A stretch of DNA of 64,000 nucleotides from Klebsiella phage iPHaGe-KPN-11i: sequence record OR637327.1; one strand, written 5' to 3'. The translations under genes and the position numbers were made by a program. How positions within the stretch are numbered: position 1 is the stretch's first letter; each line of letters opens with the position of its first letter. The notes under the pieces are model-generated. The model saw only the letters and a program-made list of their open reading frames with translations, was not told the origin of the DNA and made no database searches. Below, one piece after another: positions 1-61,760 of this stretch.

Positions 1-543
1 GATAGCGCCGGAAGCGATAGCAGTACCGGAAGCGATAGCAGCAAACGCGGTGTTTGCACCTTCACCAGAATACATGGTGTCTGGAGCGAACATCGGATGG
101 AATGCTTCACGAACGTTTGCAGGAGTACCGCCAGCCAGAGGATCTTTACCGTATACAGCACGGAGTGCGAACACCTGACCAGTAGGGCCAGTCATAGGCT
201 GAACACCGCAAATGTCGAATGCGATCAGGTTAGGAATCGCACGGCGAACCATACCGATTACAGCAGGGCCAATGTTGGTGATTGCACCGCTGGATTTACC
301 AGAGGCAATGTTGGTTGCGTCGTAACCGTGATCACCTGCAATTTCAGCTTCCGCCAGGAAACCGCCGAAGGATTCAACGATTTTTTCGTCGCGATATACT
401 GGATCAGTATCAGCATCCTTTTCCTGAGTTTCCAGAATTGCTGCAACCAGTTGTTTTTTGGACTTGGTAGCGATATCCGGTAAACCTTCCTGAGATTCCA
501 GAAGATCGTTCCATTTTTCCATCAATTCGTTTTTCTTAGACAT
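1..543 (-). CDS. gp23: major capsid protein gp23, N-terminal part (gene runs off window start)
   Basis: The reverse-strand translation starts MSKKNELMEKWNDLLESQEGLPDIATKS, similar to the T4 gp23 N-terminus (MTIKTKAELLNKWKPLLEGEGLPEIA), and it sits after gene 22 in T4 order. Confidence 0.85.
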   Translation of the reverse strand, partial: MSKKNELMEKWNDLLESQEGLPDIATKSKKQLVAAILETQEKDADTDPVYRDEKIVESFGGFLAEAEIAGDHGYDATNIASGKSSGAITNIGPAVIGMVRRAIPNLIAFDICGVQPMTGPTGQVFALRAVYGKDPLAGGTPANVREAFHPMFAPDTMYSGEGANTAFAAIASGTAIASGAI

Positions 544-562
544 TGTTTCTTACCTTATAAGA

Positions 563-1357
563 TTAGGAAAGGGCTTTAGCCGCTTGTACATATTTATTGA
601 TCTTCGATTTCTCTGCTGGAGGTGTATTTTCATTCACCGGAACAAAGTCATCTTTAGTGGTTGTCTGAGTAGTGGTACTCTCTTCAACCTGTTTTTCCGC
701 TTTAGTCGCTACCATTTCAACGATTGCGGTCAGTTTGGATTCGAACTTGTCGGAATATTCCAAACCTTCGATCAGGTTCTGAACCTTTTCAATTTGCGAT
801 TCAGTCAGATCTTTTGTTTTTTCCGAAACGATGGTATCGCGTTTCATGTTGGCGATCTCTTTAGCCTGAGCCTGATTAGCTTCGAACAGGCGTTTAACTT
901 CCTGCTGATTCTCGGTCAGTTCATCTTCGAGTTCTGCAACAACATCAACCTGCGCTTCTGGGATAACTACGTTGTGTTCAACGAACAGTTCTTTCATTCC
1001 CATTACCAGAGATTCGAACAGATCGGCCTTGATATCACGGGACACGGCTTCTTTGTTTTCAGAGAGCCATTCCTGCGCGATGTGGTCGAAGTATTTATTC
1101 GCATCTTCGTACAGTTTATTTTCGATTTCGCCAGCTTTTTCGGCAACCTGGGCTTCAACCAGTTCATCGGAGAGTTCCGCGATCTGGGCGATGTGGGTTT
1201 CAGCGAGTTTCGCAGCACCTGCTTTTACAGCTTGTTCGAATACAGTGGTGAAGTTTGCTTTCGCATCATCAGAAAGTTCAACTGATTCGAAAATGCTGTC
1301 TAACTCAACTGGGGTATCCAGGTTCTGGGCTTCTGCCAACAGTTGTTCTTTAAGCAT
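563..1357 (-). CDS. gp22: prohead scaffold protein gp22
   Basis: The N-terminus MLKEQLLAEAQNLDTPVELDSIFESV is close to T4 gp22 (MLKEQLIAEAQKIDASVALDSIFESV), and the protein is an acidic coiled coil. Confidence 0.9.
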   Translation of the reverse strand: MLKEQLLAEAQNLDTPVELDSIFESVELSDDAKANFTTVFEQAVKAGAAKLAETHIAQIAELSDELVEAQVAEKAGEIENKLYEDANKYFDHIAQEWLSENKEAVSRDIKADLFESLVMGMKELFVEHNVVIPEAQVDVVAELEDELTENQQEVKRLFEANQAQAKEIANMKRDTIVSEKTKDLTESQIEKVQNLIEGLEYSDKFESKLTAIVEMVATKAEKQVEESTTTQTTTKDDFVPVNENTPPAEKSKINKYVQAAKALS

Positions 1358-1383
1358 TTCTAAGTTTCCTGTTTGATATGATA

Positions 1384-2043
1384 TTATTTATATAGACTTT
1401 TCAAACGTTCAGAGAGTTTTCTGAAAGCGTCATCATCAGCACTATTATTCTCAACAAGCGTTTTGCTTGACTGAGATTCGGTAATCGGCTTAACGTAAGC
1501 ATCTGGAGCGCTTGGCCCCCAAACAACATCAACGCCTACTGCCAATTTAAACCCTTCTTGTACGATACCGTAACCTTTTCCAGAATCGGAAAGTTTACCC
1601 AGTCCGCGAGAAGAAACACCTGGAACCCAACCTGCGCGAATTAACGCCGCGAGTTTATCCCCATCACCGTTATCACCTTCGACAACAACAGCGCGACCCC
1701 AAACGTCATTACCTTTCCACCACAATTTTTCAATTAGGATGCAAGCATTACGCGGATCGACATTCGGTCGCGGCGGGTGATTCATTTCACCCAGAGCTTG
1801 ACGGGTATTAACCTGAGTTCTGATATAATCGTTTACTGCTTCTTCTAATACTTTTTTCGGATACAGTCGCTTATTGCGGTTGACTTTTTCGGCTTGTAGG
1901 AAAATACCTTCAATCCGAAGTTTACCGTCTTTTTTCGACTCACCGACCGATTCTAAAATTGAATCGGAAATATCCGCACAAGGTAAACCCCATTCCTCGA
2001 TTAGCAGCATATCGCCGTTTTCATTGAGTTGGGATTCATTCAT
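1384..2043 (-). CDS. gp21: prohead protease gp21
   Basis: MNESQL...RLYPKKVLE...GEMNHPPRPNVDP...RAGWVPGVSSRGLG is highly similar to T4 gp21. Confidence 0.9.
   Translation of the reverse strand: MNESQLNENGDMLLIEEWGLPCADISDSILESVGESKKDGKLRIEGIFLQAEKVNRNKRLYPKKVLEEAVNDYIRTQVNTRQALGEMNHPPRPNVDPRNACILIEKLWWKGNDVWGRAVVVEGDNGDGDKLAALIRAGWVPGVSSRGLGKLSDSGKGYGIVQEGFKLAVGVDVVWGPSAPDAYVKPITESQSSKTLVENNSADDDAFRKLSERLKSLYK
1385..1392 (-). promoter_or_regulatory. T4-type late promoter box (TATAAATA on the minus strand) upstream of gene 22
   Basis: The plus strand reads TATTTATA, which is TATAAATA on the minus strand, about 28 nt upstream of the gene 22 start. Confidence 0.6.
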
Positions 2044-2045
2044 AT

Positions 2046-2453
2046 TTATAGCCCTAATGCGGCGCGTTTACGGAGCGCTTTTTTACGCTTACGCTGTGCG
2101 CGGGTTGTAATAGAAGGGTTTGCACGTTTTGTTTTTAGCGCACGACGCGCAATTTGGCGACGTTGAGATTTAGTTAAACCAGTTGTTTGATACGCATTAC
2201 GTTCACGGGTTTTGCGGTCTTTTTTACGTTCCACATTACCGCGCGAATCTACGTGTTTAACAATGACTTCATCTAAACTCAAACCCTCGACAATGGACAT
2301 CATAGCCAGGGCTAAATGAGGTTCATTGTCCGCCAAATTTTCGATGATCTTCACAGTGCCGTCATCGATCCCCAGAACATCAACACGGGCTTTCGCTTCG
2401 GTTAAATGGGGTTCGAGATCTTCGACGCTGATTTCTTCGAGTTCGAGTTGCAT
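2046..2453 (-). CDS. gp68: prohead core protein gp68
   Basis: Its position matches T4 gene 68, and it has a basic Arg/Lys-rich C-terminus typical of core proteins. Confidence 0.6.
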   Translation of the reverse strand: MQLELEEISVEDLEPHLTEAKARVDVLGIDDGTVKIIENLADNEPHLALAMMSIVEGLSLDEVIVKHVDSRGNVERKKDRKTRERNAYQTTGLTKSQRRQIARRALKTKRANPSITTRAQRKRKKALRKRAALGL

Positions 2454-2465
2454 TATTTACACCTC

Positions 2466-2723
2466 TTATTCGTCTTTATCGTCGTCTTTTTTATCAGACG
2501 GCTTTTTGTCTTTGTCGTCGCCTTTATCATCGCCGCCTTTGTCGTCGTCATCGTCATCGTTGTCGTCATCGTCGGTTTCACCTTCGATGCGTACAGCTTC
2601 CGCGAGTTCAACGCGCATTTCTTGGCGAAGGGCTTCGGTACGGTCTTCCATGATGGAATAGAATTGCTTCTTCGCTTCCACCAGATCACCGCTTTTGATT
2701 GCTTCGATAAATTCTTTCATCAA
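2466..2723 (-). CDS. gp67: prohead core protein gp67 (poly-acidic C-terminal tail)
   Basis: MMKEFIEAIKSGDLVEAKK followed by a long D/E/K-rich tail matches the T4 gp67 architecture and position. Confidence 0.7.
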   Translation of the reverse strand: MMKEFIEAIKSGDLVEAKKQFYSIMEDRTEALRQEMRVELAEAVRIEGETDDDDNDDDDDDKGGDDKGDDKDKKPSDKKDDDKDE

Positions 2724-4294
2724 AAGTTTTCCTCTTCCTCTTCGGGATTTTTGAACCGTTCTTCTTTGGATTCTTCTTTGATCTGCTTCGCTTGTTCGTC
2801 AATGTCTTCATCAGACATTCGAAGAATCTCTTTCATGATGTATTTATGGGATACATATTTCCCTACTACACCTTCAACCTGTGACATTAACGTTAGGCGA
2901 CGTTCCATGATCTCAATATCTTTCACTTCTGCGTAATATGAATCTTGCTGGAAAATGAAGGAGATTTTGCTAACGTTCTCTTCCCATTCTTCCTCTGTGA
3001 TGATTTTTTTCGCGATCAGGTTAGTTTTTAACGGATCGGAAAGCACAGGGCTGAACTGAATTTGCAGTGTGCGGATAAACTTACTAAATTTCAGTTCATC
3101 ACGGGTGATTTCGCCACCACCACCAATTTGCATACCCCCATCATCGCGAGGCATACGGCTTAATGGCACACGCAGTGATTCATAGAGCTTACGGTTAAAC
3201 CATTTGATATCATCCATATCAGAGAAGTTAGCACCGCCTGGAAGCGTGTCTACTTCGGTGATAGCTTTACCGTCACGACGCATCAACCAGTAATCTTCTG
3301 TCATTGACAGGTTGTTTTGCTGGTTCTTAACAGTACCCGTTTTAGCATCGTACACAACGCGGTTTTTAAGCCCCTGTGCAATGTTATTTACGTACTGTGT
3401 CGCTTTGGTGCCACCCATCTGACCTACGTCGATGTAGAACACACGGCGTTCAGGTGCGCGGGTGATACGGTAGATGACCATCGCATCTTCCAGTAAACGC
3501 AATTGGTTTGCTGGCTTGACTGCGCGGTGAAGATATCCGATAATGTTGTTACTACAATCTTCCAGACCAGAATGCGCATACACGATAGCGGAGCGCGGGA
3601 TTTTAACCTTCTGGTTATGCTGATAGATTTGCCCGTTGTATGTATAGCCAGATTTAGGAGCGCTATACACGAAAAATTCGCGATAACCACGGAATACTTT
3701 CACGCCACCGTCAAGGGTTTCAGTGATAGATTCACGGATCAGTTCCATCGAACGCGGATCGAGTTGACGCAGTTCACGGATACCTTTGCTTTCGTCTTTA
3801 TGCATGATTTTATGGAAGTAGATACGGGAATCCACATACCAATCACGGAACAGACGCGCACCCATGTTATCAAAGTCATAGATATTTAGAACGTTATCAA
3901 ATTCTTCTACGATTTTGTCTTGAATCGCCTTACTAAAATCTGTTTTGGCAAGATCCAAAGTAATGATATCTTTGCCCTGTTCATTCACGATCGCATCGTC
4001 AATAATTTCAGAAACAGCGTTCTCAACTTCTGGGTAAGACATGATGCCGCGATATGTATTAATTAATTGTTCTTTGTTCTGAATCGCCGGATCTTGTCCA
4101 GAATAAAACTGCTGGAATACGCTTGCGTATTTCTGATTAGTCAGATCAGTTTCGATTTCATAAGCACCATCATTATTTTTAGGAGGCGCGACCGAACCTG
4201 TATCATTTTTTAATTGCTGTTCAAGATCTAATTCGTCCTCACGGGCGAAATTCTTGAAAAAGCTAAGTACATTGCCAAAGCCCAAAAAGTTCAT
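2720..4294 (-). CDS. gp20: portal vertex protein gp20
   Basis: There is strong similarity to T4 gp20 (..IDDAIVNEQGKDI.., YRITRAPERRVFYIDVG, TEDYWLMRRDGKAITEVDTLPG). The likely true start is MNFLGFGN (cf. T4 MKFNVLSLF) at 4294 rather than the table start at 4357. Confidence 0.9.
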   Translation of the reverse strand: MNFLGFGNVLSFFKNFAREDELDLEQQLKNDTGSVAPPKNNDGAYEIETDLTNQKYASVFQQFYSGQDPAIQNKEQLINTYRGIMSYPEVENAVSEIIDDAIVNEQGKDIITLDLAKTDFSKAIQDKIVEEFDNVLNIYDFDNMGARLFRDWYVDSRIYFHKIMHKDESKGIRELRQLDPRSMELIRESITETLDGGVKVFRGYREFFVYSAPKSGYTYNGQIYQHNQKVKIPRSAIVYAHSGLEDCSNNIIGYLHRAVKPANQLRLLEDAMVIYRITRAPERRVFYIDVGQMGGTKATQYVNNIAQGLKNRVVYDAKTGTVKNQQNNLSMTEDYWLMRRDGKAITEVDTLPGGANFSDMDDIKWFNRKLYESLRVPLSRMPRDDGGMQIGGGGEITRDELKFSKFIRTLQIQFSPVLSDPLKTNLIAKKIITEEEWEENVSKISFIFQQDSYYAEVKDIEIMERRLTLMSQVEGVVGKYVSHKYIMKEILRMSDEDIDEQAKQIKEESKEERFKNPEEEEENF

Positions 4295-4335
4295 AGTAAC
4301 TCCGAAAAATAATGATAGGGGTATTGCTACCCCTG

Positions 4336-4343
4336 TATTTATA
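4336..4343 (-). promoter_or_regulatory. T4-type late promoter box (TATAAATA) upstream of gene 20, followed by a hairpin in the leader
   Basis: The plus strand reads TATTTATA, and the stem AGGGGTA/TACCCCT lies immediately downstream on the minus strand, ahead of the GGAG SD of gene 20. Coordinates are approximate. Confidence 0.55.
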
Positions 4344-4347
4344 ACCT

Positions 4348-4833
4348 TTATTCCCACCAGTCCAGCGCGAACGTAACCTCAAAGGTTGACACTTCGTTGT
4401 TGCTGTCCCAGTCCAGGGTAACTTCGCCTACGTTAGTAGGGAACAGCCCGTGGATGGTGTGATCGGCGGTAATTTCATCGTTACGGTTTTTCTGTTTCAC
4501 CGTAGCGGTTTTTTTGTAGTTCGCTGGAATATCACCACTAATCTGATCGCCCATTCCGTGCATCATGTTTGACCATGCTACCAGAGCGTCACGCGTATTA
4601 TGCGCGTCATCGTTATAGATCGTGATTGTCCAGTCATCATAGGTACGGTCACCAGCAACGTTGATTTTGCGGTTTTGGTATCCTACCGGAACTTTTTCAA
4701 CTGTAGCCGCTGGCATGGTTGCCGCTTTACACTTGAATTTAAAGTTTTTGCCCAGATACGGGATCTCTACTTCGAACAGGTTCGGACGTGCGAAATCACC
4801 GGATTCAAAGGCGCGTAAAATGTCAGTAAGCAT
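4348..4833 (-). CDS. gp19: tail tube protein gp19
   Basis: RAFESGDFARPNLFEVEIPYLG...KINVAGDRTYDDWT...GLFPTNVGEVTLDWDSNNEVSTFEVTFALDWWE is near-identical in motifs to T4 gp19. Confidence 0.95.
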   Translation of the reverse strand: MLTDILRAFESGDFARPNLFEVEIPYLGKNFKFKCKAATMPAATVEKVPVGYQNRKINVAGDRTYDDWTITIYNDDAHNTRDALVAWSNMMHGMGDQISGDIPANYKKTATVKQKNRNDEITADHTIHGLFPTNVGEVTLDWDSNNEVSTFEVTFALDWWE

Positions 4834-4837
4834 TTTT

Positions 4838-4878
4838 AACCTCGGATTATTTATGGGGGCTTTTCAGCCCCCTTGACT
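4838..4878 (-). terminator. hairpin GGGGGC-TTTTCA-GCCCCC between genes 18 and 19
   Basis: This is a perfect GC stem lying between the gene 18 stop and the gene 19 start. A clean T-run follows on neither strand, so it may be an attenuator or RNA-stability hairpin. Confidence 0.4.
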
Positions 4879-6870
4879 TTATACGGCTTGCGGCCCTACC
4901 AGTTCATCGAAATCTGCGCCTGTAGACGTTGCTACGAAGTTCAGAGTGATGTAGTTGATAGAACGAGGCGGTTTCACGTAGACCGTTGCTACAAACTCGT
5001 TACGGTCGATTACGTCCGGCGTGTTGTTCGTGGTGTCACAGATTACACGGTAATCGTAGCAACCACCCAGCGCACGAATATTAGTCATGTACTGACCTGT
5101 ATCCATACGGAACGAAGAACGGGTGAAATCGTCGTTGTTTTCAAACAGTTTGTATTTCGCGTTATCACCGATGTCTTTCTTGATCATGTTGAACAAGCGA
5201 CGAACGTTGATACGGTCAAATGGACTCGGTACGTTAGTCAGTGTTTTATCACCGAACAGAACGAAGCCGGAACCACCCGCGAAACCAGTTACCGGGTTAA
5301 TCTGAACCTGATACATTGCGTCACGATGTGCTGTGCGCGGTTCGATAGCCAGTTTGATACAGTTGCGGATCTGACCACGGTTGTAACCTGCTGGAGACAT
5401 CCACGGTTGAGAAACGCTATCAGTGTAAACACACAGGCCAGCGATATCACCTGCCAGCGGAACCCAACGGTTCACGTCATTGTATTTATCATACTGATAT
5501 TTATAGTTACCATCCAGGAAGCCATAGCTTGAACTTACGTTCAGATTGTTATCAACAGCAGCACCACCACTGAGTTTATAGCCAGTACGCCATTCAATCA
5601 TGTTATCAACCGCAGTTGCCAGCGGGATATTCACCAGAAGTGAGCGCGGAGGCGACACAAACACGGTACAATCCTGACGTTCATCACCGATTGAAATAAC
5701 ATGTTTCTGAACGGTAGACATAATCTCTACGGTTTCGCCAGCACACGCACCAGCAATCAACAGAGGCACATGCAGAGCTTCGCGATCAGCGAACATATCC
5801 CAACCATTCATCAGTTCATCAGCGCCTACAGTATCGTTTGAGGACAAACCACCGCCGAACTCCAGGATACCGGAGAAGCCTTTAGGCCAGTTCAGGGAAG
5901 TACCGTAAACGTACTGAGAGCCACCGTTCGCGAAAAAGTCATCCATGAAGATGTTGACACCATAGATATCTTTATCGGTCTTCTCGGTTGACACGATGAA
6001 GGATTCCTGTACAATACCACCACGACGCACAACAAAAGCGTACTGGTTATCGGTCTGTGGCCCGTAGGTCATTACAGAACGACCGCTGTTCTTAACGGAA
6101 ACCCCAGAAGGGTAGCCGGAAATCATAGCGCCAGAATCGTAAGCAGCTTTGGAGATAATCTCCACCTGAACAGTTGAACCCAGTTCACCAGGATACAGAG
6201 CCACAACAGACGGCAACTGATATTTCTGGGTAAGAGTCTGGAAAGCGGTTCCCTGAATTGTTTCTTTTGCAATATCCAGGTTCAACAGAGTGATCCCAGA
6301 ATCGCTTTCGATGCCGTCAATCGTAATCGACGCAGAAACACCGGAAGACTGAGAAACAATTTCGGTAGTCCAGCCAGTAGAAATATCTGGGTAAGTACCA
6401 ATCTGTTTAGCACGGGCAACGATTTTTTCGCTTGGAATGATTACCGAGAGGATCTTGCCGTTACTGTCAACTTTGGACACTTTACCTTTTTCTTCTACAA
6501 CAACGCTGTTGTATTTTACTTTAATAGTATCGTTCACAGTGTAGTTAGAACCCTGTGATGCGATAGTTGTTTTGATCTGGTTAAAAATTGCGCTTGCGTT
6601 TTTAGCGGCATCTTTATCGACAACGCGAACCACACGGAGATCATTACCGTACTGCAAGAAGTTAACAGCACTCATGAAATAGTCAGCGGTCAAGTTGTCT
6701 GGGGAACCAAAATAGTTTACCAGTTCGACTTCGTTAGAAATCTGACGGATCTGATAAGCTGGCCCCCATGAAAATTTACCGACAATGGCAGCGCGACCAG
6801 TTGAATTTCGAACAACGGTAGATTGTACCGATGTTTCTTTGGTTTCAATACCTGGAGATTGTAAAGCCAT
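4879..6870 (-). CDS. gp18: tail sheath protein gp18
   Basis: MALQSPGIETKETSVQSTVV..FMSAVNFLQYGNDLRVVRV...NPVTGFAGGSGFVLFGDKT..SINYITLNFVATSTGADFDEL is collinear with T4 gp18 (659 aa). Confidence 0.95.
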   Translation of the reverse strand: MALQSPGIETKETSVQSTVVRNSTGRAAIVGKFSWGPAYQIRQISNEVELVNYFGSPDNLTADYFMSAVNFLQYGNDLRVVRVVDKDAAKNASAIFNQIKTTIASQGSNYTVNDTIKVKYNSVVVEEKGKVSKVDSNGKILSVIIPSEKIVARAKQIGTYPDISTGWTTEIVSQSSGVSASITIDGIESDSGITLLNLDIAKETIQGTAFQTLTQKYQLPSVVALYPGELGSTVQVEIISKAAYDSGAMISGYPSGVSVKNSGRSVMTYGPQTDNQYAFVVRRGGIVQESFIVSTEKTDKDIYGVNIFMDDFFANGGSQYVYGTSLNWPKGFSGILEFGGGLSSNDTVGADELMNGWDMFADREALHVPLLIAGACAGETVEIMSTVQKHVISIGDERQDCTVFVSPPRSLLVNIPLATAVDNMIEWRTGYKLSGGAAVDNNLNVSSSYGFLDGNYKYQYDKYNDVNRWVPLAGDIAGLCVYTDSVSQPWMSPAGYNRGQIRNCIKLAIEPRTAHRDAMYQVQINPVTGFAGGSGFVLFGDKTLTNVPSPFDRINVRRLFNMIKKDIGDNAKYKLFENNDDFTRSSFRMDTGQYMTNIRALGGCYDYRVICDTTNNTPDVIDRNEFVATVYVKPPRSINYITLNFVATSTGADFDELVGPQAV

Positions 6871-6885
6871 TATAGAATTTCCTCT

Positions 6886-9231
<2,346 letters not shown>

Positions 9232-51554: not shown

Positions 51555-51649
51555 ACACAGGTTATATCTTAATGTGTGTTATTGTTGTGATCGCGGGGCT
51601 GGCTGTGCTGGCTTACCGCCACTATACAGGTGATGAAAATGATTATTAA
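51551..51649 (+). CDS. small membrane peptide (32 aa)
   Basis: MNTGYILMCVIVVIAGLAVLAYRHYTGDENDY, with an ATGA overlap. Confidence 0.35.
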   Translation: MNTGYILMCVIVVIAGLAVLAYRHYTGDENDY

Positions 51650-52157
51650 CAAGGAGAAAGAAACCGATTACACTCTTTCTCTTCTACGGGAATCTTTCTC
51701 GTATAATAAAGATACGGGTATCTTTACTTGTATAAACAAGAAAGCAAAACGATATTTTGGGAAACCTGCCGGAACGTTACATAACAGTGGGTATATCCGA
51801 TTAGGCATTCGTGTAGATGGAAAGCCAGTATTATATCTTGCTCAACGTGTTGCGTGGGCTTTTGTTACTGGAAGTTGGCCTGAAAATATGATTGACCATA
51901 AAGATACGATTAAACAAAACAACGCTTTTGATAATCTACGAGAGGCTACACGTTCAATCAATGCGTATAATTATCGACGGATAAGCAACGCAAATGCTTC
52001 TGGATATAGGGGTGTTCATGTTGATTCTCGTGGAAATCGTGTACGATATGGTGCATATTATGGGAAAACGAGATTAGGTACTTTTGACAGTGCCGAAGAA
52101 GCACACGAAGCATATATGAAATATGTTAAATCTATTCATGAGGTTGTGATTGAATGA
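51633..52157 (+). CDS. HNH-AP2 homing endonuclease (copy 2)
   Basis: YLAQRVAWAFVTGSWPENMIDHKDTIKQNNAFDNL (HNH_3) plus GYRGVHVDSRGNRVRYGAYYGKTRLGTFDSAEEAHEAY (AP2). The table start at 51630 is a GTG. Confidence 0.8.
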   Translation: MKMIINKEKETDYTLSLLRESFSYNKDTGIFTCINKKAKRYFGKPAGTLHNSGYIRLGIRVDGKPVLYLAQRVAWAFVTGSWPENMIDHKDTIKQNNAFDNLREATRSINAYNYRRISNANASGYRGVHVDSRGNRVRYGAYYGKTRLGTFDSAEEAHEAYMKYVKSIHEVVIE

Positions 52158-57868: not shown

Positions 57869-58116
57869 TTCACACAATTAGCGTTATTATGGGTGATGTC
57901 GTAAACATCAATGGACACGATTACTACGTAGCGGAAATCAATACAAAGGGTAATCGTGAGATCTTGGAACTGGACATTGTAAGGCCGTCCGAAGGGCAAT
58001 CCCTTACAATCGAAGTGGTTCATAACACGAACACAGGGGAAGACGTAGTGAAGCCAGTTCTGGCCCGTCTTCCGGTGTTCTACTGTGAAAAGTCAAAACG
58101 TTGGAAAATGAAATGA
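57865..58116 (+). CDS. hypothetical protein
   Basis: 83-aa ORF. Confidence 0.55.
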   Translation: MIHTISVIMGDVVNINGHDYYVAEINTKGNREILELDIVRPSEGQSLTIEVVHNTNTGEDVVKPVLARLPVFYCEKSKRWKMK

Positions 58117-58508
58117 ATCCGAAAGATTTAACTGATGTGAAAGTGGGTGATACCCTTTACGATCCTGGCGAAAGGTTATACAATACCCGTAAAACAGCAA
58201 ACCCTCGCGAATTTCACGTTCTAAAGGTTGCGCGTCAATATCTGTATGCATCCACTGATAAAGACGCTGATTTGAAAAGCTGGAACATCGAGAAAGTCGA
58301 TCGTAAGACTGGATTGACTTCTGGTAGTGGCGGGGGCTGGGGCGGATTTTATATGTATCGCAGCGAAGCGGTATACAAAGAAATCCAGTATCGTGCTGAA
58401 CTGAGTGAAAAGATCCGAAAAGAGTTCGGTTCTCACGCTGTTGTTGTTCCTGAAATCACTACCGCTGAACTGCGCGGTATCGCAAAAACCCTGGGGGTTA
58501 AATTTTGA
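58113..58508 (+). CDS. hypothetical protein
   Basis: MNPKDLTDVKVG.. The table start at 58101 is a TTG. Confidence 0.5.
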   Translation: MNPKDLTDVKVGDTLYDPGERLYNTRKTANPREFHVLKVARQYLYASTDKDADLKSWNIEKVDRKTGLTSGSGGGWGGFYMYRSEAVYKEIQYRAELSEKIRKEFGSHAVVVPEITTAELRGIAKTLGVKF

Positions 58509-58516
58509 AAACTGTA

Positions 58517-59491
58517 ATGGAAACCGTGTTTGGTTCTCACCTGTATGGACTGAACACACCGACAAGCGATAAAGACTATAAAGGGATCTTTCTCCCGCAC
58601 CCGCGCGATATTCTCCTGGGGAAAGCCCCAAAGACTATCGACACCAGCACGGGCGATAAAAGCTCTAAAAACACCGTAGACGACGTTGATCGTCAGTTGT
58701 ATAGTCTGACTAAGTTTATCAGCCTTGCGTGTGATGGTGATACCGTAGCGCTAGATATGCTTCACGCTTCGGATGACAAGCTGATCGCTAACTCTGAAAT
58801 CTGGCAATATATCCGCGCTAACCGCTGGCGTTTTTACACCACTGAACTAACTGGCCTGTTCGGTTATGTTCGTAAGCAAGCCGCGAAATATGGCGTGAAG
58901 GGTTCCCGACTGGCTGCACTGCGCGAAGTGTACGATGTGTTGCAAAAAACCGACAACTCGCACTATGATGAAAATGCTACGTCGCTGGTCAATACAAAAG
59001 TCAGTGACATTGTGGATAAACTACCAACCAATGAATTCTGTCGTGCTATCCTGCACTATAGCGAAAAGGGCGGTATGCAGAACTTCTATGAAGTGCTGGG
59101 GCGTAAATTCCAGTATACGATCACCATAGCGGAAATGAAAAAGTCAGTGTATAAACTCTGGGATGAATACGGAGAACGCGCACGACAAGCAGAAGCCAAC
59201 AACGGGATCGACTGGAAAGCATTAAGTCACGCGTTGCGCGGTGGTATGCAGTTGATCCAGATTTACAAAGATGGTGATATCGTTTATCCTCTGCCTGATA
59301 GCGCATTCCTGAAACTGGTTAAATCTGGCGGCGTACCGTTCACAACCGTACAGGAAAAGCTGGAAGAAGTCATGGGTGAAGTCGAACGCCTTGCAGCGAT
59401 TTCAACATATCCGAAAGAAGTTGATCGCGAATTCTGGAACGATTTCATCGAACGCGTATACCGTGATCATGTTGTGGGGTATTACAAATGA
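58517..59491 (+). CDS. Pol-beta-superfamily nucleotidyltransferase (PF10127 'RNA-repair-associated NTase'-like)
   Basis: METVFGSHLYGLNTPTSDKDYKGIF gives the G-S..x9..D-x-D NTase signature at the extreme N-terminus. The table start at 58505 is a TTG. Confidence 0.6.
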   Translation: METVFGSHLYGLNTPTSDKDYKGIFLPHPRDILLGKAPKTIDTSTGDKSSKNTVDDVDRQLYSLTKFISLACDGDTVALDMLHASDDKLIANSEIWQYIRANRWRFYTTELTGLFGYVRKQAAKYGVKGSRLAALREVYDVLQKTDNSHYDENATSLVNTKVSDIVDKLPTNEFCRAILHYSEKGGMQNFYEVLGRKFQYTITIAEMKKSVYKLWDEYGERARQAEANNGIDWKALSHALRGGMQLIQIYKDGDIVYPLPDSAFLKLVKSGGVPFTTVQEKLEEVMGEVERLAAISTYPKEVDREFWNDFIERVYRDHVVGYYK

Positions 59492-59730
59492 TGTATCCTA
59501 AATTGTCCGGCGCTGAAATTGATGTTCTGTATAAACTTTACGGATACGCAACTAAAGTGCTAGACTTAGATTTCAATGACGTACCCAGCAAATCAGGGCG
59601 TGATTCCCTGATTCAAAAAGGTTACGCTCGAAGAGTAACGGGTTATCACGATAATTCGAAAGCATGGTTGCTGATTACCCCACTGGGGATTGACGCATAC
59701 CGACACGGTATTAAAACGGAGTGGCACTAA
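59488..59730 (+). CDS. hypothetical protein
   Basis: 80-aa ORF. Confidence 0.5.
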   Translation: MMYPKLSGAEIDVLYKLYGYATKVLDLDFNDVPSKSGRDSLIQKGYARRVTGYHDNSKAWLLITPLGIDAYRHGIKTEWH

Positions 59731-59990
59731 TGACTGATGTTATTTTGAAAGTTAAAGATGTTGTACTGGGCGATACCAAAAACCCAGACGCGGTTACACT
59801 GGAACAGGCTGTTGTTCAGATCATGCGCGATAGCCTCCGCCTGGAAGTTACTGAACGCACCGAAAGCAATTACACGGGCGGAATTGATGGTCGCCAGTTG
59901 TACGAAGATAACAAACACGTTAATGTAACCCTATGGGCGGACATTGACGAAAACTCATACAAAATTGACGAGATTGATTTTGACGTATGA
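59730..59990 (+). CDS. hypothetical protein
   Basis: MTDVILKVKD.. The table start at 59721 is a GTG. Confidence 0.5.
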   Translation: MTDVILKVKDVVLGDTKNPDAVTLEQAVVQIMRDSLRLEVTERTESNYTGGIDGRQLYEDNKHVNVTLWADIDENSYKIDEIDFDV

Positions 59991-60910
59991 AAATAATTGA
60001 CCTCTGTGCTGGTGTGGGCGGGGTTCGATTAGGATTTGATAAGGCATTCGGCGGTGTCGAATGCCTTTTAACGTCTGAAATCGACAAGTTCGCACAGCAA
60101 ACATATATCGAAAACTGGGGCGATGATAACCTACAGGGTGATCTATTCGCCATTGATGAAAACAAAGTGCCGGATCATGATATCCTGCTGGCGGGGTTCC
60201 CGTGTCAGGCGTTCAGTAAAGCCGGATTGAAACTGGGCTTTGACGATGTGCGCGGTACGGTGTTCTTTGAAATCCTCCGCATTATACGCGCTAAAAAGCC
60301 CCGTGTACTGTTCTTTGAGAACGTGCCTGAACTGCTAACCCATGACAAGGGGAAGACGTTTAAAACGATTTACGGGCTTCTGGAGGCCGAAGGATATAAC
60401 GTATTCTATCAACGCCTGAACACAAAGGATTTCGGACTACCCCAAAGACGGGAACGCGTGTTTATTGTCTGCTTCCTGGATGATGTATTCTTTTCGTTTC
60501 CGGTTCCCCCGCGTACCCCTACACGCGTAGGCGACATCCTCGAAGATGCTGATGATTCATTCACCCTCTCAGATAACGCATGGAAAGGCTTTAGAGAGCG
60601 TAAGGAACGAAATAAGGCAAACGGTAAGGGTTTCGGTTATCAGGCCGTCACAAGCGATTCTGCGCACACTGGGACTATCACTGCAAATTACTATAAAGAT
60701 GGTGTTCAATGTCTGGTATTGCAGGAAGGAAAGAACCCCCGAAGACTTACTCCCCGTGAGTGTTTTCGTTTGCAGGGTTTCCCAGATTCGTTTATTATCA
60801 ACAAAAGCAAGATGCAAGCGTATAAACAAGCAGGTAATTCTGTTTCAATACCAGTCATCGAGGCTATAGCAAAACAAATCAAGAAGGTGTTATGTCACAC
60901 AACGGACTAA
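59987..60910 (+). CDS. dcm: DNA (cytosine-5)-methyltransferase
   Basis: Motif I IDLCAGVGGVRLGF, motif IV GFPCQAFS (catalytic Cys), motif VI ENV, motif VIII QRRERVF and motif X AGNSVSIPV. Confidence 0.92.
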   Translation: MKIIDLCAGVGGVRLGFDKAFGGVECLLTSEIDKFAQQTYIENWGDDNLQGDLFAIDENKVPDHDILLAGFPCQAFSKAGLKLGFDDVRGTVFFEILRIIRAKKPRVLFFENVPELLTHDKGKTFKTIYGLLEAEGYNVFYQRLNTKDFGLPQRRERVFIVCFLDDVFFSFPVPPRTPTRVGDILEDADDSFTLSDNAWKGFRERKERNKANGKGFGYQAVTSDSAHTGTITANYYKDGVQCLVLQEGKNPRRLTPRECFRLQGFPDSFIINKSKMQAYKQAGNSVSIPVIEAIAKQIKKVLCHTTD

Positions 60911-61428
60911 GAACAATCGAAGAAGAACAGAAAGGAATTGACGAATTCCTTAAAACTGTTTCTGTTGATATACAAACGGGGACAATTATACGAACGTCAC
61001 ACAAACGTTCTGACTTGATCGGAAAGGAAATAGGTTCGAAGATTAAAGGAGGATATACCCGCGTTTATTTCAAAAGCAAAGGATATCTACGTCATCGAAT
61101 CATCTACTACGTTGCAACCGGAAAACTGCCTGATGTGATTGATCACAAAAATGGTGTTGAGGCTGGCGACGGGATTTATAACTTGCGTGAAGCGGATCAA
61201 TCCCGAAACTGTCAGAACCGGACTAAACGAAGAGTAGCAACCAGTCGATTCAAGGGTGTATGTGTACGTGATCAACCTACTGGAATACGTTACATTGCAC
61301 AGATAAAGATTGACGGCAAGGTTAAACATATCGGTTCCTATCGTGACGAATACGAGGCTGCAAAAGCATACGATCGGGAAGCGATAAAACATTTTGGTAA
61401 ATTTGCAAAATTAAACATTGCATACTGA
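60892..61428 (+). CDS. HNH-AP2 homing endonuclease (copy 3), overlapping the 3' end of dcm
   Basis: YLRHRIIYYVATGKLPDVIDHKNGVEAGDGIYNL (HNH_3) plus FKGVCVRDQPTGIRYIAQIKIDGKVKHIGSYRDEYEAAKAYD (AP2), with a strong AAGAAGGTG SD. Confidence 0.8.
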   Translation: MSHNGLRTIEEEQKGIDEFLKTVSVDIQTGTIIRTSHKRSDLIGKEIGSKIKGGYTRVYFKSKGYLRHRIIYYVATGKLPDVIDHKNGVEAGDGIYNLREADQSRNCQNRTKRRVATSRFKGVCVRDQPTGIRYIAQIKIDGKVKHIGSYRDEYEAAKAYDREAIKHFGKFAKLNIAY

Positions 61429-61481: not shown

Positions 61482-61760
61482 ATGACTTTTAATGACCTGT
61501 TTAACGGATGTACTGGCGCTGGTGCGAAATTCAATCTACTGAAAGATTACCCGCTGGGTTCTAATCCAGGTTACGTGATGGTTGAAGTGCGTAACGGTGA
61601 ATACTACAACGTGTTCATGTGGGATCGTTCTTTCTCTTACTGCTGGTTCGGTGCGAAATACAAACCAGATTACATCCTGGAACAAATCGAAACAGTGAAA
61701 GCGAAAAACCCTGAACTGTACGCGTTCGCAGAGTCTATTCGTGGTGTGTTCGGACACTGA
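61482..61760 (+). CDS. hypothetical protein
   Basis: MTFNDLFNGC.. downstream of a partial conserved leader (CGAAACGAAACTGAAAAGGAAC). Confidence 0.55.
   Translation: MTFNDLFNGCTGAGAKFNLLKDYPLGSNPGYVMVEVRNGEYYNVFMWDRSFSYCWFGAKYKPDYILEQIETVKAKNPELYAFAESIRGVFGH

Follow-up and report, generated by a model that had tools for sequence, protein, structure and literature searches.

How does a T4-like phage that encodes a complete C5-cytosine DNA methyltransferase protect its DNA, which sequence would that enzyme methylate, and is the gene itself mobile? These questions are raised by a locus near the end of a 64,000-nucleotide (nt) stretch of Klebsiella phage iPHaGe-KPN-11i (sequence record OR637327.1), hereafter referred to as the window, in which a C5-cytosine methyltransferase (methylase) gene is overlapped at its 3' end by a gene for an HNH-AP2 homing endonuclease. 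An initial annotation of the locus took the classical T-even phages, with their glucosylated hydroxymethylcytosine, as its yardstick, and proposed that this phage carries unmodified cytosine, that the methylase serves either anti-restriction or the manipulation of host Dcm-dependent processes, and that the endonuclease marks the methylase locus as mobile.

Taken as a whole, our results make it highly probable that the locus belongs to an ordinary-cytosine Pseudotevenvirus with an orphan anti-restriction methylase of the SsoII/NlaX/SpyI lineage, at the end of which a free-standing HNH-AP2 homing endonuclease has been inserted. Earlier publications on these phages had already described the methylase (2006, 2013, 2016), the absence of hydroxymethylcytosine genes (2010, 2013) and the HNH-AP2 endonucleases of RB16, RB43 and KP15 (2006, 2010). 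What this work adds is the placement of the target-recognition domain (TRD) in the SsoII/NlaX/SpyI lineage, along with a predicted target, and the finding that the methylase is an orphan; it further defines the endonuclease insert, with its presumably co-converted flank, to the nucleotide and documents a genomic purge of palindromes in which CCWGG is retained.

Phage affiliation and cytosine status

At the DNA level, the window locus is 97.6% identical to that of Enterobacter phage EC-F1 and 97.1% identical to that of Escherichia phage UPEC03, and a DNA search with the locus showed that 176 phage records have the methylase locus in common. Colinearity with EC-F1 extends over the whole window, which corresponds to positions 123,392-178,070 followed by 1-9,229 of that genome (94% covered, 93.5% mean identity). 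The records sharing the locus are classified in Straboviridae, as Pseudotevenvirus or, for the more distant ones (~85% protein identity), as Slopekvirus, and none of them falls in Tevenvirinae; the G+C content is 44-46%. Judging from these relationships, the source phage is a Pseudotevenvirus of the RB16/RB43/GAP161 "pseudo-T-even" group and not a classical T-even phage. The T-even yardstick was therefore misplaced: a C5 cytosine methylase has been listed in this group since 2006, namely RB43ORF127c (Nolan et al., 2006; PMC1524935), and its presence in the window is expected rather than surprising.

The proposal of unmodified cytosine, in turn, held up under several lines of evidence. The T4 proteins gp42 (dCMP hydroxymethylase), beta-gt and alpha-gt (glucosyltransferases), taken from the T4 record, gave no tblastn match in the window; in the complete EC-F1 genome no glucosyltransferase was found either, and the sole gp42 match was a 22%-identical gene that scores as thymidylate synthase (TIGR03284, 308 bits, cut-off 108), while the positive controls T4 gp43, UvsX, gp56 and Dam were all recovered in the same search. 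The hydroxymethylcytosine and glucosylation system of the T-even phages is thus missing from the window and from complete EC-F1. This agrees with published surveys, as RB16 and RB43 are not among the phages with gene 42 in Table 4 of Petrov et al. (2010; PMC2993671), and no hydroxymethylase, glucosyltransferase or TET/JBP genes were reported in KP15 and KP27 (Kesik-Szeloch et al., 2013, PMC3620542; Maciejewska et al., 2016, PMC5219037).

The composition of the DNA points in the same direction. Of the 64 palindromic hexamers, 28 never occur in EC-F1, each being expected 22-52 times, vs 18 of the 4032 non-palindromic ones; over the window (1-64000), 27 palindromic and 42 non-palindromic hexamers are missing. 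This wholesale purge of palindromes implies DNA that is readable by type II restriction enzymes, i.e., ordinary cytosine. Among shorter motifs, GGWCC occurs 6 times in EC-F1 (246 expected), and CCSGG 14 times, vs 200 expected under a zero-order or 130 under a Markov model, with 8 occurrences in the window. CCWGG is not purged, with 311 sites in EC-F1 (observed/expected 1.26 zero-order, 0.72 Markov) and 120 in the window, and GATC, at 1168 sites in EC-F1, is over-represented (observed/expected 1.72). As read from these counts, the pattern fits unmodified cytosine protected by site avoidance and by methylation of a few short motifs. In a search for literature on the palindrome purge in RB43-type phages, only general papers and no prior description were found.

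The hexamer sites absent from the window include those of PstI, BamHI, HindIII, SacI, KpnI, XhoI, SmaI and SphI, and both GGWCC and CTAG are nearly eliminated in the window as well as in EC-F1. In a part of EC-F1 that lies outside the window (L004, 27213-28900), a T4 Dam homologue (54%) is adjacent to a gene labelled "N4-methylcytosine methyltransferase (group beta)", which yielded only weak NCBIfam matches, to adenine methylases.

A complete orphan methylase gene

The methylase gene (59987-60910, + strand) starts with an ATG that overlaps the stop codon of the upstream open reading frame (ORF; 59721-59990) by 4 nt, and encodes a protein of 307 amino acids (aa). Its full length, as initially annotated, was borne out: the protein is covered by the entire PF00145 profile (1-324/324, E 3e-92, 310 bits, cut-off 22) and scores 317.5 bits against TIGR00675 "dcm" (cut-off 100.65). 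Motifs I (DLCAGVGG, aa 5-12), IV (GFPCQAFS, aa 70-77, with the catalytic Cys73), VI (ENV, aa 111-113), VIII (QRRER, aa 153-157), IX (TPRE, aa 255-258) and X (GNSV, aa 283-286) were all located, so the catalytic motif set of C5-cytosine methyltransferases is complete, and the protein could also be aligned residue by residue with M.HhaI, its closest solved structure (2e-63). No frameshift, internal stop or truncation was seen in the ORF; the methylase looks complete and, by these features, appears active.

The protein is 99.7% identical to its UPEC03 counterpart and 98% identical to GAP161_117, and the gene occupies the same position in ~175-200 related genomes from two genera. Searches of the window and of EC-F1 gave no match to an SsoII-type restriction gene or to Vsr. 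The methylase is thus an orphan, and the idea of a phage-borne restriction-modification pair, or of a Vsr partner, was discarded.

Recognition domain and predicted target

The TRD lies between motifs VIII and IX (aa 169-252; 60491-60742, + strand) and is of the type found in M.SsoII, M.NlaX and M.SpyI, which recognise CCNGG. Its identity is 55% to M.Kpn2kI (SsoII-type, plasmid pKPN2) and 46% to M.SpyI, with 1 gap in each case, vs 31% to Escherichia coli Dcm (29 gaps) and 24% to M.HhaI (19 gaps). A GCGC specificity like that of M.HhaI, suggested by the best PDB match, was rejected because of this dissimilarity. The best plasmid matches of the whole protein are 4.2-kb restriction-modification plasmids of the SsoII/Kpn2kI type from Shigella, E. 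coli and Klebsiella (54% over 98% of the protein), and in pKPN2 the annotated methylase has a type II restriction gene as its neighbour. The best match in a phage that is not T4-like is M.SpyI of the Streptococcus prophage phi1207.3 (54%).

In the TRD, bacterial homologues of 307-324 aa are 57-61% identical (52% for P0110), and five of them were examined for their neighbours. Homologue P0097 (58-59%) lies in a controller-restriction-methylase operon, whose 289-aa restriction enzyme has R.Ecl18kI (CCNGG) as its best match (6.6e-36) and retains the SRRSRxGK and KTxLRERWQE motifs. Homologue P0028 (61%), from a P2-like prophage of Morganella, adjoins a truncated Ecl18kI-like ORF (1.7e-26). P0028 was also considered as the experimentally characterised Morganella enzyme M.MmnI (CCNGG), and this was rejected, as the cloning primers of the latter give a different N-terminus (MILKKHP...). 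As separate observations, several bacterial homologues of ~60% identity are orphans directly preceded by a restriction gene of the GmrSD type, which belongs to the modification-dependent type IV (L019 and L020, 1990-3984), and another one adjoins an HATPase_c_3 protein and a 372-aa protein (L013, 3531-3926).

Among the characterised relatives, M.SsoII methylates the second C of CCNGG, and M.NlaX is its natural N-terminally truncated equivalent with the same specificity (PMC3978073); the targets of M.SpyI are CCAGG, CCTGG, CCCGG and CCGGG (PMC10082018). The GenBank record of phage KP15 describes the orthologue KP15_105 as "similar to cytosine methylase NlaX; methylase ScrFIA", and the DNAs of KP15 and KP27, with 279 and 276 CCWGG sites, respectively, are uncut by EcoRII (PMC3620542). 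On the basis of the TRD type, the homologue neighbourhoods and the specificities of M.SsoII, M.NlaX and M.SpyI, the most likely target of the phage methylase is predicted to be the inner C of CCNGG, i.e., C(m5C)NGG, where m5C is 5-methylcytosine, or at least the CCWGG subset.

The endonuclease and its insertion

The endonuclease ORF (60892-61428, + strand; 178 aa from an ATG) shares 19 nt with the methylase ORF (60892-60910, stop codon included), in agreement with the start 19 nt before the methylase stop that had been annotated, and its ATG is preceded by the Shine-Dalgarno-like sequence AAGGTG at 60884-60889. Within it, an HNH region (~aa 65-106; 61084-61209, + strand) is followed by an AP2-like DNA-binding region (~aa 117-175; 61240-61416, + strand). 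The protein matches PHROG_99, "HNH endonuclease" (E 9e-47), and as a single sequence it matched an AP2 domain at 1.9e-4. A family profile built from the endonuclease with its orthologues and paralogues (7 family members) and searched against the PDB matched the AP2 domains of WRI1 (3.9e-12), TEM1 (2.6e-6), and ERF096 and AtERF1 (0.007-0.016), as well as the HNH homing endonuclease I-HmuI (3.3e-4). The HNH motif reads DHKNG...NLR...NCQN, and residues D84, H85, N97 and N106 are invariant among the 7 members. A paralogue with the same HNH-AP2 architecture, 38% identical, is found at 46880-47455 (+ strand; Pfam AP2 3.6e-5, HNH_3 2e-4), and a second homing-endonuclease-like gene, encoding an HNH_3 protein (2.8e-14), at 51630-52157 (+ strand); EC-F1 has additional endonuclease copies elsewhere.

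Comparison of the window with KP27 and phT4A defined the insert as 527 nt (60890-61416, + strand). In the empty site of KP27, AAAGCG is directly followed by CTTGCATAG and then by 58 nt to the next gene, while in the filled site of phT4A the insert begins after AAGGCG with TTATGTCAC and ends in TTAAAT, after which CTTGCATAG resumes. The insertion point therefore precedes the original methylase end by 9 nt. In the window, the relic of the displaced methylase end is ATTGCATAC (61417-61425, derived from the ancestral CTTGCATAG), which together with the following TGA (61417-61428, + strand) now forms the last codons of the endonuclease. The methylase received from the insert a new six-residue C-terminus, LCH(T/I)(T/M)(D/G), and a stop codon, the window allele reading LCHTTD. 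The alleles that carry the endonuclease, namely those of the window, EC-F1, leE, Banach and the Slopekvirus phT4A, have a methylase gene of 924 nt, with the ATG of the endonuclease placed 19 nt ahead of the methylase stop, while alleles without the endonuclease have 909-912 nt and encode 302-303 aa (308 aa in KP15).

The endonuclease occurs in 21 of ~176 related records, every time overlapping the methylase gene, and a divergent methylase 3' tract (60656-60889, + strand) travels with it, which is presumed to be a co-conversion tract. Relative to GAP161, which lacks the endonuclease, the DNA is 95-100% identical as far as 60655; identity then drops to 85, 82, 75 and 77% in successive 60-nt bins over the last ~240 nt of the methylase (60656-60895), and is 100% again from 61449; the same tract is 100% identical in the endonuclease-carrying EC-F1. 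Elsewhere, the slot contains an unrelated 146-aa ORF (GAP161_116) in 43 records, two small ORFs in RB16 and nothing in KP27. The endonuclease and ORF116 were never found together in the genomes sampled, and they are alternative cargoes of a variable slot; insertion beside ORF116 with later decay of the latter was rejected, as no remnant of it is present in any endonuclease-carrying genome. RB16 had been expected to carry the endonuclease after its methylase, given the EC-F1 label "RB16 6", and this proved wrong, the RB16 endonuclease being located upstream of nrdC.11 instead. In KP15 (L028, 2227-3153), an empty-site allele has its methylase stop TAG mutated to CAG, which adds 5 residues to the protein; its methylase 3' tract matches that of the endonuclease-carrying phT4A, which suggests a past loss of the endonuclease or recombination.

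Its patchy presence, the fixed insertion point in two genera, the one-sided divergent flank and the paralogues identify the gene as that of a free-standing homing endonuclease, which, judging from these comparisons, is probably mobile and spreads by recombinational repair. The mobility proposed for the methylase locus does not extend to the methylase: the gene is fixed in ~175-200 genomes, and only the 527-nt insert and its ~240-nt flank are polymorphic. As far as the genomes compared indicate, the methylase is a stable, conserved gene and the endonuclease alone is mobile.

Proposed mechanism and alternative explanations

According to the explanation that we favour, the methylase would be made during infection and would modify CC(N/W)GG while the phage DNA replicates, which would render the progeny DNA resistant to EcoRII-type and SsoII/Ecl18kI/Kpn2kI-type enzymes; these are common on small plasmids of enterobacterial hosts, in the very genera that such phages infect. 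It would act alongside a T4-like Dam and a second amino-methyltransferase (genes 0040 and 0041 in EC-F1), and alongside the near-complete purge of six-base palindromes. The endonuclease would have inserted 9 nt before the methylase end, reusing the displaced methylase codons as its own C-terminal end, and it would cut endonuclease-less alleles in mixed infections and be copied into them by recombinational repair, which would drag along ~240 nt of methylase 3' sequence. Of the two roles initially proposed for the methylase, anti-restriction is the one suggested by the signs of restriction pressure, while nothing supports the manipulation of host Dcm-dependent processes.

Some of the data pull away from this explanation. 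Only 64 kb of the phage is in view, and gene 42 is predicted to be absent from the remaining ~114 kb on the strength of its relatives. Regarding the endonuclease, the protein alone reached 23.2 bits against Pfam HNH_3, under the cut-off of 24.8, and gave no match to Pfam AP2 even at E 10. Regarding the target, host Dcm could explain the EcoRII resistance of KP15 and KP27, since a siphovirus without a cytosine methylase was equally resistant (PMC3620542). Further, the TRD of the phage clade replaces residues common to all characterised CCNGG/CCWGG enzymes, YTNTISARYYKDGSEILI having become HTGTITA(N/Q)YYKDGVQCLVL; the conserved block YTNT(I/L)SARYYKDG(S/A)EILI is not found in the phage clade, in which the YYKDG core is kept and the flanking conserved residues are changed. 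Finally, the purge of CCSGG is about ten-fold while CCWGG is kept, which is unexpected if every CCNGG site is efficiently protected.

These last observations can be read as a change of specificity. The replacement of SAR by TA(N/Q) and of SEILI by VQCLV would be its cause, and the loss of CCSGG with CCWGG kept its genomic footprint, if the methylase of the phage clade had shifted from the ancestral CCNGG and now methylated only CCWGG or an altered pentanucleotide, a shift that we hold to be unlikely. If it is true, homing would shuffle specificity determinants between phages, since the endonuclease-linked recombination tract begins inside the TRD. It is possible, if doubtful, that the methylase has narrowed to a Dcm-like CCWGG specificity that mimics host Dcm, CCSGG being unprotected and hence purged. 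Such a narrowing would account for the depletion of CCSGG beside retained CCWGG in both EC-F1 and the window, for the deviation of the phage TRD from all CCNGG enzymes at conserved residues and for the EcoRII resistance of the relatives' DNA; however, E. coli Dcm has the very residues that were replaced in the phage enzyme, the changes therefore not being in the direction of Dcm, and the TRD is much closer to CCNGG enzymes than to Dcm in both identity and gaps. Moreover, the purge of CCSGG is equally explained by BcnI/SmaI-type enzymes or by type IV restriction of C(m5C)GG. McrA-type restriction, for instance, acts on C(m5C)GG, and methylated CCSGG is possibly a liability for this reason.

Other explanations question the role of the methylase or of the endonuclease as such. 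The conservation of the methylase in ~200 genomes of two genera, and its lack of a restriction partner, as in regulatory orphan methylases of bacteria, would suit a mainly epigenetic role within the phage, in the timing of transcription, replication or packaging, or the manipulation of host Dcm-dependent processes; nevertheless, neither positions nor motifs give evidence of regulation, with no promoter or terminator signal above chance between 57.5 and 62.5 kb, the site purging and the methylatable sites retained genome-wide point to restriction pressure, and the nearest relatives are restriction-modification methylases on the host's own plasmids, which makes this role very improbable. In some phages, C5 methylases occur together with TET/JBP dioxygenases, and m5C could likewise be only the first step to a hypermodified base, e.g., by TET-like oxidation to 5-hydroxymethylcytosine followed by glycosylation. 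KP27 DNA does resist several enzymes in a manner left unexplained (PMC5219037), but no dioxygenase or glycosyltransferase domains are present in the neighbouring genes, neither TET/JBP proteins nor glycosyltransferases or hydroxymethylases turned up when the KP15 group was searched specifically for them (PMC5219037), and the massive avoidance of restriction sites argues against bulk hypermodification; we consider hypermodification scarcely credible. As for the endonuclease, the translational overlap of its gene with the 3' end of the methylase and its own Shine-Dalgarno-like sequence would suit a domesticated gene, whose product might help or regulate DNA modification, a role suggested for the endonucleases of KP27, or act as a nuclease on competing phages. 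Yet its patchy distribution (21 of ~176 records), the identical insertion point in two genera, the divergent flank, the several paralogues per genome and the fact that most relatives function without it make domestication very improbable in comparison with homing.

Relation to known systems

The closest known counterparts of the methylase are the "Dcm-like" orthologues RB43ORF127c, RB16p119, GAP161_117, KP15_105 and KP27_137 of Pseudotevenvirus and Slopekvirus, located at the same position with 85-99.7% protein identity and already reported as C5 methylases (PMC1524935, PMC3620542, PMC5219037). The window allele differs from RB43ORF127c-type orthologues without endonuclease in carrying the insert and in its 307 aa with the LCHTTD ending. 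The methylase resembles the methyltransferase domain of M.SsoII, M.Kpn2kI and M.Ecl18kI, with an overall identity of 54-56% to M.Kpn2kI and a colinear TRD, but unlike these enzymes it has neither a partner restriction enzyme nor an N-terminal helix-turn-helix regulatory region. In being a single-domain protein it is similar to M.NlaX, which has ~313 aa and is thus of similar size. Like M.SsoII and M.NlaX, which are both 41% identical to M.HhaI (PMC3978073), it is closest to M.HhaI among solved structures, although the substitution of conserved TRD residues sets it apart from the M.NlaX/M.SsoII group. No adjacent Ecl18kI/SsoII-type restriction gene was found here; M.NlaX-like orphans are compatible with the SsoII/NlaX/SpyI subfamily. 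M.SpyI, from prophage phi1207.3, is likewise borne by a phage or element and belongs to the same lineage (54-55% identity); it differs in its 408 aa and in its location within a restriction-modification cassette with LlaJI-type restriction subunits (PMC4260502). As with T4 Dam, a homologue of which (54%) is present in EC-F1, and with other orphan phage methylases, the presumed function is the pre-protection of progeny DNA; unlike Dam, an N6-adenine methylase, the enzyme is a C5-cytosine methylase, and T4 adds glucosyl-hydroxymethylcytosine, which this phage type lacks.

The endonuclease shares its two-domain architecture and phage group with the free-standing HNH-AP2 endonucleases of RB16, RB43, RB49 and KP15 (Magnani et al., 2004; Petrov et al., 2010, Table 5), and its copy in EC-F1 is annotated as "putative homing endonuclease RB16 6". 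In contrast to those genes, which lie in intergenic spacers, the window copy interrupts a coding gene within its final 9 nt, and RB16 has no endonuclease at the methylase site.

Neighbouring genes

The methylase and the endonuclease belong to a series of ORFs that read in the same direction, the stop of each overlapping the start of the next (59488-59730, 59721-59990, 59987-60910 and 60892-61428). The right-hand anchor of the variable slot is a conserved downstream gene of the RB16p116/PHROG_7752 family (61482-61760, + strand; 92 aa from an ATG), which is 99-100% identical in GAP161 and EC-F1; the PHROG_7752 profile matches aa 16-107 of the listed ORF (6.6e-58). A promoter and terminator scan of 57.5-62.5 kb gave no signal above chance, and neither did a scan for the T4 late promoter (TATAAATA) near the locus.

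Upstream of the methylase cluster, 58101-58508 (+ strand) encodes a phage ProQ C-terminal-like protein (1e-19) and 58505-59491 (+ strand) a nucleotidyltransferase of the NrdC.11/RlaP family (PHROG_388, 4.6e-120), mis-annotated as "thioredoxin" in several relatives. At the junction 59726-59732, two genes upstream of the methylase, EC-F1 and Banach have an extra 92-aa ORF (ECF1_0195; L001, 4245-4523) that is absent from the window and GAP161, which points to another small indel cassette in a hypervariable early region. Further away, 41704-42972 (+ strand) encodes a 422-aa protein with a SPASM iron-sulfur domain, labelled "radical SAM superfamily protein" in EC-F1 (ECF1_0232), and 47478-48824 (+ strand) a PIN-PhoH fusion protein (PhoH 4e-35, PIN_4 3.5e-15) of the RB43ORF157c type noted by Nolan et al. 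(2006).

Implications

From a specialist's viewpoint, nothing in this locus is surprising, and its weight beyond annotation is small. The findings confirm that T4 relatives of the RB43 type use plain cytosine, protected by the purging of restriction sites and by a small set of orphan methylases. The target prediction, CCNGG or CCWGG, would be useful for choosing enzymes for cloning and typing, as well as for reasoning on host range in phage therapy with regard to Klebsiella, Enterobacter and Cronobacter strains that carry Kpn2kI/Ecl18kI/EcoRII-type systems. In addition, the exactly mapped insertion at the methylase end offers filled and empty alleles as a clean, naturally occurring pair in which intron-less homing can be studied.

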